From the NCBI GenBank assembly GCA_052327205.1, contig CM126206.1:298778001-298842000 (forward strand): a stretch of 64,000 bases of DNA, read 5' to 3'. Each line of letters opens with the position of its first letter. The first letter of the stretch is position 1. Positions 3,746 through 56,594 of the stretch are shown piece after piece. This DNA comes from Somniosus microcephalus (taxonomy: Eukaryota). The position numbers were made by a program, and so were the translations under genes. The notes under the pieces are model-generated. The model had not been told where the DNA came from, ran no database searches, and saw only the letters and a list, made by a program, of their open reading frames with translations.

Positions 3746-52217
<48,472 letters not shown>

Positions 52218-53860
52218 TCGGAGGATTTAACGGGTTTGAGCAATTAAACAAAGACTGGAAAAGTCAGAGAAAAGTATTTTAGTATATGTGAAACACGATG
52301 TTTACCGTGAAATATGCATGAAGTTAAGTTAAAAGAAAAATGTTACTTCTAGTAGGAATATGAGTCACTGTAAATATATTGATTTGTTTTTTCCAAATGT
52401 TTTCTTCATACTTACACTGTAGTTTTGTTGAATTGTTTTAACTGCTAAGACTGCACACAAACTGTTTATTAAAAAAAAAAGTTATTTTAAGATCTTGTAA
52501 ACGATGGTGTTTCTGTAGAAGAATTTTGGCTGCAAATCTGCAAAATGCACCTTTTTGTTTTTGTGCAGGCTTAGCCCATCCTTGTCTCTGTAACAATGGC
52601 CGAGGTAAAATGATGTTTATATTCACATTTTCCTAGGTGTGTGTGCGCAGGCCAGCATGCCCTTGGTGTACTCAGTGCCGAAGGGGTCTGTCCCTACCTG
52701 TGCCTGCTCGCAGGGATGGTCACATCATTTAAAGCAGGTTGTGTACCACTTTCAGTACACTGAAGGTAAGCTAAACCATCAACATTACTGGTGTACTAGC
52801 ATTCATTGTCACAGATAGGCACAGCTCATGAATGAGGAGTATTGGCATCATGGCAGAATGCCTTGCATGCTGGCGAATGTGATAAGATATTAACTAGCTT
52901 GTGAATTTGCTAATGTACTGCTGAAACTATGCCAATTTATAGACTTCAGTGCGGGGAAGCTTGATGAGTATAGCACCTTCAGTGTACTGTTCATTACCCT
53001 TTGAAGTTGTTATAGAATTGTGGTAGAAATATGTCAATGCCATAAAATTCTGTTTCTTAGTAAATCTGTACCTATAGTCCATTAATAAACAGAAGCAGTT
53101 TCATTTAGTCATTAAAATGGAAAAAGATTGGGATTTTATATTTCTTTGTAGATGTCTAAAATATGACTGAATTTTTAAAAATTAAAATTAAGATTGTTTT
53201 ACAGTAAGAATTTCCTTTGCTACGTTATGTGCATTGGTTTCATTATTTGTGATCATGTTGTCTCTCAATACAGGCATACATAACCTTCCACTCTTGAGCA
53301 AAGCAGCTGCTTTTTAAAGCGGTAATTGCTTCTTTACCTTTTTTCTTTTGTACATTTAATTTGGTTTTTAGTTTTCTTTTGTTTAAGATGAGTTGTGATG
53401 ACTTTGAATTGTAGTTCTGTACTTAGCCCCTTCACTGGCACAAGCTACCATTTGATTTCAGACTGCAAAAGGATCTATTAAACCCTCCAGTTTCTGAGTG
53501 CAGAACAGCTTTTTTTTTTGATTCAGTAAACCTTTGCACCTGTGTGCAAATAATCCATGCATTAAATGGGCATAAAATTTTTGATAGCGACTTGTTGAAA
53601 TAACCAACAAAGAAAGGTAACATTCAAAGACTAGCTGATCAGAACTTAGCGATGCACTAAGGCCTGCAGACTTGCAACTGGCCAGTGAAGGAGTTAAAAT
53701 AATTGCACAATGCCTTTGCTTATATATAAAGGTAAGTTGGGGCATTTTGTCAGACAGCAGCACACTCTTCCTGCATCTAAAGTTACCCTTGCAGAATACC
53801 GGAGGATTTTGGTATGCATTATAGATACATTGATGAATAAAGTATTCGTTTTGGATAAAC
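52218..53860 (+). other. PRPF4B: PRPF4B 3'UTR (end uncertain)
   Basis: AU-rich stretch after the stop with no recognisable repeats; AATAAA at 53084-53089 and 53836-53841, with further signals downstream. Confidence 0.65.
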
Positions 53861-54724
53861 ATTATTATAGCTGTTTCACAGTGGCCCTACGTGCAGTCAA
53901 GTCTCTGTACAGCCATAAAACTACAGTGGTGACTTGCTGATCTGATCTGTTTTTTTAATTTTATTTTGTTATCCCAATTGTCTTGGTATGAAATGTTTAA
54001 CGAGCGTCATTTTCTATGTAAATGTGACATTTTTATCCAACAACCTTTTGTACAAAGTAAAAAAAAAAGTAAGATTATCAAGTCACAAATCAATGCACTC
54101 AACGTAAATTGCCTTTAGTTGCTGTAAGCCTTTCACTTACTATTTCAAAAAAAAATAAAAACTGGTAAAAATGATTTATGCAAAGGAGTAGTTGATCAGT
54201 TTCCTAGTGTCTCTTTTCAACATCAGTTTAGTTAATGTTTTAACTTACTGTGAAAGTACCTTTTTAAAAGGTGGTTACTTATTGGAAATGAGTGTCTCAG
54301 AATAAGTTAAAGGTCACCACAATTCACAAAGCTGTTTGGAAGTCTGATCCAGTTACCCTGTTACTGTAAAATGACTAATGTTTTGTACTGTTTTCTTACT
54401 TCCCTTCGCTGGTGCTGAGAGAGAAAAGAAAGCACGTTATGTTGCTATGCTGGGAGGCAACAGGCCACGTCGCCTATTCCATGGGCCTGCTTTGAATGAG
54501 ACACCTTCTCCTTCACCTTCTCCACAAGGTCATTTCTGACGGCATGCCTAGATAAGCATTTCATACCAGATGAAACGTGCATTTCTTGCAACTGTTATCT
54601 TTTAAGAAAATAAAACACTTTTCTTTGAATAGCTGACACTTCTAAGGGTTCTTTGCTTTGCTCCTGTTGAATTGTGATGAATGTAAAGTTTTTAAATTAA
54701 GTCTGAGAGCTTCACACTTGACGT

Positions 54725-54962
54725 ACAAAAGCAAAATACCGCGGATGCTGGACGTCTGAAATAAAAACAGAAAATGCTGGAAATACTCAGCAGGCCAGGC
54801 AGCATCTGTGGAGAGAGAAACAGAGTTAACGTTTCAGGGCGATGACCTTCCATCAGAACCGGATGAAAGGTCATCGACTTGAAACTTTAACTCTGTTTCT
54901 CTCTCCACAGATGCTGCCTGGCCTGCTGAGTATTTCCAGCATTTTCTGTTTTTATTTCAGAC
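54725..54962. mobile_element. Penelope-derived palindrome with two degenerate minimal hammerhead motifs
   Basis: 101-bp arms 54754-54854 and 54862-54962, 7-nt loop, 4 mismatches; arm sequence matches the Penelope terminus at 27541-27632. Confidence 0.88.
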
Positions 54963-56039
54963 TTGGTGTTTACTCAAGAAAATTATTTAAATTCCTTATT
55001 GTTATGCAGAATTCTTTCACAGGCATTTTTTTTTTTTTTTTTAAAGCACAGCAAAACTTAAGGGATCAAGGTGTTTCTTTACTTGTTCTCTGTCTCTTAG
55101 GTGCACCCTGATGGGAGACGATGCATATTGCAAGAAAATGAAGACTGAATTAAGGTTTCTGTCCCATAAAGACAACACTTACAGTGACTTTAAGTAACTG
55201 GAATATCACTGTTTGCTTGTGATTTTTTTCAATTAAAATGGTGTCTTTAAAGACCTTCATTGCTAACTCTCAACTGGCAGGGACCAGTATCTTACCTTTA
55301 TTGTTACTCTTCTAAGTGAGAGATTGACAAATTGGTTACAGGTTTAAATGAACTGTGCATGTTTTACATTATAATTTGGGTAGTTCATTTAGTAAAGTAA
55401 GGTAGTGTAAGATTGGCCTAGAGTCGTAACCTTGTAAAATCAAGGTGCCCGACATTTGTATCTTTACCAAAGACTGTTTAGTGATTTCAGAAACCAAAAT
55501 AGCCCCACTTTTTGTTGGATATTGTCTTTATAGTGAAAAGAAATGATTTGCTGCAAGTGTAGTAAGGTTTTTTAAAAAGCTATAATTCTGTCAGCCTAGC
55601 TTGAACTCTGTAGTACAGTCTCTGGTGGTAAATTTTGGTTATCTTCAGACTTTTGTTTGTTTTCTTTTTGCAGGGTCTATTTAGGTTATATGTGAAAGCT
55701 TTAATATGCAGTGAAATTGATATAGCAGATAATCCATATCTCAATTATCATTCTGTATGTGAATGACCTAACTGCCATTATAGCAGGCAATATCCAGGTT
55801 TGACCCCCATTTCCCATTGGCCTAGTTAAATATTGCACTGCATTTTTGTTGCAGGGAACCTAGTTAAAGAGAGTTTATAAATAGACGGGCTATGTTGCAA
55901 ATTGAGGGGTAATTCATAAGTAAGCTTGTTTCATGTTTGAATCATGTTATACTATTTTCTTATCCTGTGTTTTATTTCATAGGTAGGGACCACAATGTAA
56001 AATGCCTACACCTGCGAATGATGATTCATTATCTTAGCT

Positions 56040-56130
56040 TCAACACCAGTTACTGACAGCAAAGAGTTCTTCAGTATTGAATGAAAGTGAAGACGGTGGT
56101 TTCACACACTTATTTTTCAATACGGTTATA
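56040..56130 (-). CDS. Candidate terminal exon of a convergent gene (unidentified)
   Basis: acttttag acceptor, ITVLKNKCVKPPSSLSFNTEELFAVSNWC then stop, minus-strand AATAAA at 55976-55971; phase matches the donor at 59614. Confidence 0.3.
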
Positions 56131-56594
56131 CTAAAAGTATAATTGTATTGCTGTTTGTTGAAATATTTCAGCTTTAAGTTGCAGATATATATAAATAAAA
56201 TGCAAGAATTTGCCTGTTTTACTAATCTTGGGTACTGGTCATTCTGAAACACTAAGAAACCCTACAAACTCAATAAAACATCTTCAACTCAATAAGACAT
56301 CTTGACAGTGGACTAGAATGCTAATTTCTAGGTGTTGAAACCACAGTAATGTGTGCATTTTGTCGACATTTTGTATTGTCTAGCTGCAACATTGTAAATG
56401 TAATACTTTGGCAATGCTTAAAATATTTTTATTGCTTTCATTAAAAGAATTTAGTATCAAAGTGATTGTTTTCTTTTAAGATTCTGTTATCACTAAGTGA
56501 AGATCAATTTTATGTCCTGGTTGCTGAAGAAAATTTCCCCATTAGCGCATTAGCAAAGCATATTTATTTTTCTCCTCTTGTCAATGTTACGAAC

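Follow-up and report, generated by a model that had tools for sequence, protein, structure and literature searches.

The structure ISTL1 in intron 7 of SMN2 has been both probed and mutated, and its loop measures 279 nt (PMC3783185). In the PCCR catalogue (PMC8052449), conserved complementary regions are reported as depleted at splice sites with high usage, and enrichment is reported at those with weak usage. The catalogue contains 29 rows for PRPF4B, in which clusters of about 110 pairs extend into the PRPF4B UTR. The route from splicing to decay of PRPF4B 3' UTR introns is already known in human: the legend of Suppl. Fig. 1D of bioRxiv 10.1101/847004 names this gene as an example of 3' UTR introns yielding NMD isoforms. 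A review describes the product, PRP4K, as a kinase of the spliceosome that is essential and constitutes a cancer dependency. A literature search, with subscription journals mostly outside its coverage, found no published helix in the PRPF4B 3' UTR, and no control element or feedback was found described for the 3' UTR-intron isoforms in the literature searched. PRPF4B rows are absent from the available parts of the supplements of PMC8361881 and PMC6547761, only expression rows occur among the matches listed for the supplement of PMC8116631, and the accessible main text of PMC11387194 does not mention the gene. Two of the 29 PRPF4B rows in PMC8052449 do not contain the helix pair described below, which may already be an anonymous entry elsewhere in that catalogue.

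The window analysed here is a stretch of 64,000 nucleotides from Somniosus microcephalus. An earlier note had assigned a 3' UTR in this window to PRPF4B and had proposed that a long-range helix sequesters a 5' splice site there, acting as a switch on UTR splicing and PRP4K level. The identity of the gene was confirmed by protein comparison. The segment 52017-52214 of the forward strand encodes 66 residues, of which 61 are identical to the C-terminus of the human PRP4 kinase (6qx9_K 942-1007, E value 1e-33; identities counted on the printed alignment), and kinase exons located upstream of the last one are recognisable in plain translation. The host gene therefore encodes a splicing regulator, the PRP4 kinase, as expected for the class of 3' UTR introns linked to AS-NMD. 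The last coding exon also contains, at 52097-52111, the site of a human cryptic donor (hg38 4060501). The site is weak here (U1 energy of -1.9 kcal/mol), so the minor human junction is probably not conserved in this species. The coordinates of the features are collected in Table 1.

Table 1. Features of the PRPF4B 3' terminal region (positions in the window)
Feature	Position	Strand	Remarks
PRPF4B last coding exon	52014..52217	+	Stop codon 52215-52217; from translation and match to 6qx9_K
3' UTR acceptor	52627..52641	+	Last intron base 52636; counterpart of hg38 chr6:4061014
Internal 3' UTR exon	52637..52765	+	Putative; 129 nt (133 nt in human)
Local 8-bp hairpin	52748..52767	+	Predicted before transcription of the 3' arm; covers donor positions -3 to +2
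Long helix, 5' strand	52753..52782	+	Predicted; 52753-52767 perfect, bulge, 52770-52773, 52775-52782
5' splice site	52763..52771	+	Intron starts at 52766; hg19 chr6:4061382 is its likely counterpart in human
3' UTR intron	52766..53273	+	Putative; 508 nt (507 nt in human); contains the 3' arm
Long helix, 3' strand	52957..52989	+	Predicted; perfect part 52975-52989
Second UTR exon	53274..53321	+	Putative; 48 nt (46 nt in human)
Next UTR donor	53301..53331	+	Intron start 53322; counterpart of hg38 chr6:4061701; local hairpin, pair probabilities 0.87 and 0.57

The intron chain of the UTR was reconstructed from human junctions. All five PRPF4B rows of Table S3 of PMC8091538 were considered; two of them are the unannotated junctions used here, which involve the acceptor hg38 chr6:4061014 and the donor hg38 chr6:4061701 and whose partner sites are given with 15-mers. 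The acceptor 15-mer has a single match in the window, at 52627-52641 with one mismatch (0.13 matches expected at two mismatches or fewer), and the donor 15-mer has a single, exact match at 53317-53331. The two 15-mers are spaced by 686 nt here versus 687 nt in human. A third human 15-mer was rejected as too loose (12 matches at three mismatches or fewer, including one at 54414 within the UTR). Five PRPF4B 3' UTR junctions, corresponding to all five PRPF4B rows of supplementary file 10 (hg19), are included in the figure source data of PMC9203280 on common 3' UTR splicing events, where "common" designates events spliced at more than 10% in over half the samples. An offset of 234 between hg19 and hg38 was derived from the shared donor (4061935 versus 4061701). 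By arithmetic from the two sequence anchors, without alignment, the human junction hg19 chr6:4061382-4061888 maps to positions 52769-52770 and 53275-53276, 3-4 nt away from the donor 52766 and 2-3 nt away from an AG whose last base is 53273 (joint chance of about 0.0035). Around the predicted acceptor, no other AG lies at 20 nt or less, and the donor 52766 is the only one of the 49 GT sites between the two human anchors with a U1 energy of -9 kcal/mol or better. The exon lengths (133 versus 129 nt, 46 versus 48 nt) imply small indels in this mapping. Concerning conservation, the flanking acceptor and the next donor match the human 15-mers, and the donor 52766 is placed by distance alone.

From these positions, the donor 52766 likely closes an internal UTR exon within a chain that comprises at least six UTR introns in human, and it is probably ancient and linked to NMD. 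The distal human UTR exons (87, 77 and 46 nt) were also searched by length, an approach abandoned after it gave 6, 7 and 9 candidates respectively and no clear chain. Strong acceptor-like tracts at 55100 and 55673 and poly(A) hexamers at 56194 and 56272 are present in the region 55050-56280, which suggests that the UTR and its intron chain extend to about 56.3 kb. Upstream, a mini-exon of 36 nt (52569-52604) lies between an acceptor-like site at 52568 and a donor-like site at 52605 (U1 energy of -6.9 kcal/mol); located 32 nt before the acceptor 52636, it may serve as a decoy or represent an alternative UTR exon. Among the donor-like sites of the terminal region, 53732 is the strongest (U1 energy of -10.6 kcal/mol); it sits inside a hairpin of -17.5 kcal/mol at 53705-53750, and no human junction among the PRPF4B rows of Table S3 of PMC8091538 or supplementary file 10 of PMC9203280 maps to it.

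Over 15 nt, the segments 52753-52767 and 52975-52989 are exact reverse complements of each other, as the earlier note had stated, and the next in-register pairs, both outward and inward, are mismatches. The folding of 52740-53000 gives a z-score of -3.04, with none of 200 shuffles as stable; that of 52750-52994, a segment positioned on the feature, gives -5.1 (25 shuffles) versus -2.3 to +1.3 for 18 tiles of the UTR. In all five sequence contexts, from 261 to 1886 nt, the 15 pairs of the arms are predicted with probabilities of 0.88-1.00. The predicted stem is composed of these 15 pairs, a 2-nt bulge at intron positions +3/+4, 4 pairs and then 6-8 pairs. About 27 stacked pairs, including 13 exonic bases, would thus close a structured interior. 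The inward continuation proposed earlier is recovered for 52770-52773/52971-52974 (0.97-1.0) and 52777-52782/52961-52966 (0.70-1.0); its innermost part, which starts from 52797 and would involve about 52902-52912, has low probabilities (0.24-0.29) and was rejected as weak, an alternative being predicted at 0.56. A local hairpin on the 5' arm also exists in the prediction, with 8 bp (52748-52755/52760-52767; -8.2 kcal/mol) rather than the 5 bp given earlier. The 5' arm pairs with the 3' arm at -24.7 kcal/mol, versus -15.3 with 52659-52674, -12.5 with 52942-52956 and -10.7 with 52787-52800. Since these rival partners are 9-14 kcal/mol weaker, a two-state equilibrium switch is unlikely, and bistability at equilibrium is not supported.

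Duplex energies were calculated against the U1 5' end of the same genome, in which U1 snRNA genes form a tandem array (G000:C25:53255221-53560662, spacing of about 3.1 kb; 42 scored genome matches). With a U1 duplex of -9.5 kcal/mol, the donor 52766 ranks third of the 292 GT sites in 52015-56500, in agreement with the strong donor announced by the earlier note. In the prediction, the helix pairs seven of the nine U1-pairing positions (-3 to +6), and freeing them costs 15.6 kcal/mol when the 3' arm is present. Before the 3' arm is made, the cost is lower: 7.0 kcal/mol when 40 nt downstream of the donor are included and 5.5 kcal/mol when 190 nt are. The 43 control donors never exceed 10.5 kcal/mol: seven coding donors, a subset of those of the gene found by eye, require 2.8-8.7 kcal/mol, and all 36 strong intragenic GT sites require 10.5 kcal/mol or less (median 5.05). 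The other strong UTR donors (53322, 53732 and 55983) open at 7.5-7.9 kcal/mol, inside the background range. The hairpin of the donor 53322 resembles the layout at 52766, being paired through +2, bulged from +3 and paired again; its opening cost of 7.5 kcal/mol is exceeded by 3 of the 36 background sites and is not exceptional. By RNA energies alone, in a model that omits U1 proteins, pseudouridines and other modified bases, and helicases, U1 binding at 52766 is predicted to be favourable before the 3' arm appears and unfavourable afterwards.

A splice junction located well beyond 55 nt past the stop codon marks an mRNA for decay. The donor 52766 lies 549 nt past the stop in the unspliced UTR, and at least 129 nt past it if the upstream UTR intron is removed, in both cases beyond the 50-55 nt of AS-NMD. 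We give about even chances to the reading in which the helix is a kinetic brake on this NMD-triggering donor. During the transcription of the first 200 nt or so after the donor, only the weak local hairpin would cover it, and U1 could win at this stage because the opening cost (5.5-7.0 kcal/mol) is below the pairing gain (-9.5 kcal/mol). Once 52961-52989 is made, the long helix would close, and U1 pairing alone would be insufficient because the cost then exceeds this gain. A donor engaged within the window of about 200 nt would be spliced, and the transcript would lose the 3' arm, carry a junction more than 55 nt past the stop and be degraded; splicing of 52766-53273 would remove the helix, because this intron contains the 3' arm. 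Transcripts whose donor is not engaged in time would retain the intron and be translated into PRP4K. Elongation speed and early spliceosome activity would then set the PRP4K level. The fold likely limits the destruction of the message, because the likely human counterpart of the donor is in use and the gene has been reported to yield NMD isoforms through such splicing.

Several parts of the interpretation advanced by the earlier note are thus retained: the gene, the donor, a helix that buries it in silico and the link to NMD (through the human junction and 10.1101/847004). The idea of a switch at equilibrium is not, no open state being predicted; for this reason any switching would have to be kinetic or driven by proteins. 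Nor can the term "sequesters" be taken as absolute, because the likely human counterpart figures among the common 3' UTR splicing events. This common splicing and the depletion of complementary regions over highly used sites in PMC8052449 count against the brake. In addition, the local hairpin already masks positions -3 to +2 of the donor at an early stage, which blunts a simple picture of a site first open and then closed.

PRP4K acts at the pre-B-to-B transition, where the 5' splice site passes from U1 to U5/U6. PRP4K chains occur in spliceosome structure entries such as 6qx9. It would be a long shot that the helix is a vertebrate-wide sensor of this very step. Under such a reading, the helix would pair 13 exonic bases and the GU that are due for the hand-over from U1 to U5/U6; a slow hand-over would let the 3' arm snap shut and the message survive, and plentiful PRP4K would let splicing be completed and the message be destroyed. 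If true, a spliceosomal kinase without an RNA-binding role would be autoregulated by a race in which RNA folding competes with activation of the spliceosome.

Another explanation, which we regard as unlikely and which fares best among the alternatives, is that the helix functions in the mature intron-retaining mRNA, for example through a dsRNA-binding protein such as Staufen, in localisation, stability or translation, the covering of the donor only preventing excision of the intron. Both arms persist only in the productive, unspliced UTR; the stacked pairs around a structured interior would suit a protein-binding duplex, and the one-sided equilibrium fits a fixed structure rather than a switch. 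Against this explanation, the predicted helix coincides precisely with the end of the exon and with the GU of the donor that is strongest between the human anchors.

It is improbable that the complementarity arose by chance or is specific to this lineage, in a region conserved for splice signals or protein sites. In favour of such an origin, the pair is the best case picked from 64 kb, the false discovery rate of PCCR predictions is given as 10% to over 50% in PMC8052449, and real DNA is richer in inverted repeats than shuffled sequences. A perfect inverted repeat of at least 15 nt with arms within 300 nt appears in 2 of 1000 dinucleotide shuffles of the UTR (52218-54200, 1983 nt) and in 1 of 40 shuffles of the whole window; the real window contains five such pairs versus 0.025 per shuffled window, and shuffles therefore understate the background. 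However, the UTR figure counts the 15-mer pair by itself; neither the 10-12 additional pairs nor the overlap with a donor enters into it. The four other perfect pairs of the window are repeats with further copies (5, 4, 2 and 8 blastn hits), whereas the PRPF4B pair has none, and the near-identical length of the human intron suggests a constrained interior. In the 6.4-Gb genome of the species, searched with very common words skipped, the only match of 52640-53010 is itself. The statement that no repeat explains the arms therefore holds, and an origin from the terminal inverted repeats of a transposon (MITE) was rejected. Rfam covariance models, applied to 51900-55500 at E values up to 1, gave no match on the helix, pre-miRNA included; the four matches obtained all fall on a repeat at 54773-54964, far under their gathering scores.

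This same part of the probable 3' UTR carries a MITE-like element (54754-54962) with arms of 101 nt, 96% complementarity and eight related hits in the window, which would fold in the mRNA as a hairpin of -179 kcal/mol. Around the helix, one 5-mer occurs at 52667, 52742, 52792, 52914 and 52983, that is five times in 364 nt versus 0.42 expected from the window rate, an uncorrected figure for the best of all 5-mers. This 5-mer, which contains the UGUA core of CFIm25, shows complementarity to a portion of the 5' arm as well.

Duplexes between an exon end and the downstream intron are known ADAR substrates in GluA2 (R/G site) and filamin A (Q/R site). That the helix is such a substrate, splicing being tuned by edits within the stem or close to the donor, is very doubtful: in its favour, the prediction joins an exon end to a complementary intronic segment about 210 nt further downstream through a long and slightly irregular duplex, and PCCRs are enriched for A-to-I sites according to PMC8052449, but the adenosines at -3 and -2 are in A-U pairs without A-C mismatch, those at +3/+4 are bulged, a 3' UTR offers no codon to recode, and the literature found on PRPF4B and A-to-I editing sites concerns PRPF4B in other matters.

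Concerning the significance of a brake on the donor 52766, the NMD isoforms of the PRPF4B 3' UTR introns are on record and the helix is a candidate for the element that sets their share. The intronic 3' arm can be altered without touching the splice site, which offers a clean test of how the PRP4K level is held. If the brake is real, this arm would be a handle for lowering PRP4K, and the folding race at this 5' splice site would be an unusually strong example from nature.

In comparison with known systems, the locus likely belongs to the class of 3' UTR introns linked to AS-NMD. On an in-silico test, it is also a candidate for the conserved donor-masking helices, a stable helix being predicted over the U1-pairing bases in the manner of ISTL1 and PCCR-type pairs. 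In layout, the locus looks most like ISTL1 with TSL2 of SMN2 (PMC3783185): the U1-binding bases of a donor are covered through pairing with a strand from deep in the intron, across a loop of a few hundred nucleotides (279 nt in ISTL1, about 180-210 nt in PRPF4B), and a local hairpin is present on the donor in both cases. ISTL1 is however intra-intronic and concerns a coding cassette exon, whereas the PRPF4B helix includes exonic bases and concerns a 3' UTR donor. Contrary to ISTL1, masking in PRPF4B would raise the productive mRNA, and the PRPF4B helix is so far a prediction. In BRD2 and BRD3, as reported in PMC10789245, a long-range complementary pair is likewise tied to an NMD splice choice with a dependence on elongation speed; these pairs and the PCCR-type ones flank and loop out a poison exon, whereas the PRPF4B pair lies over a UTR intron's donor. 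PCCRs are moreover defined by conservation in PMC8052449, whereas the PRPF4B pair is known from the sequence of one species. As in SRSF2/SC35 (PMC2831310) and hnRNPA1, splicing past the normal stop creates an NMD target in the gene of a splicing regulator, and human PRPF4B, described in 10.1101/847004 and PMC8091538, is the very gene considered here, with junctions that are the same ones according to the mapping. In SC35, according to PMC2831310, control is exerted by protein binding at the terminal acceptor exon; in PRPF4B, it is the helix that would supply the control element.
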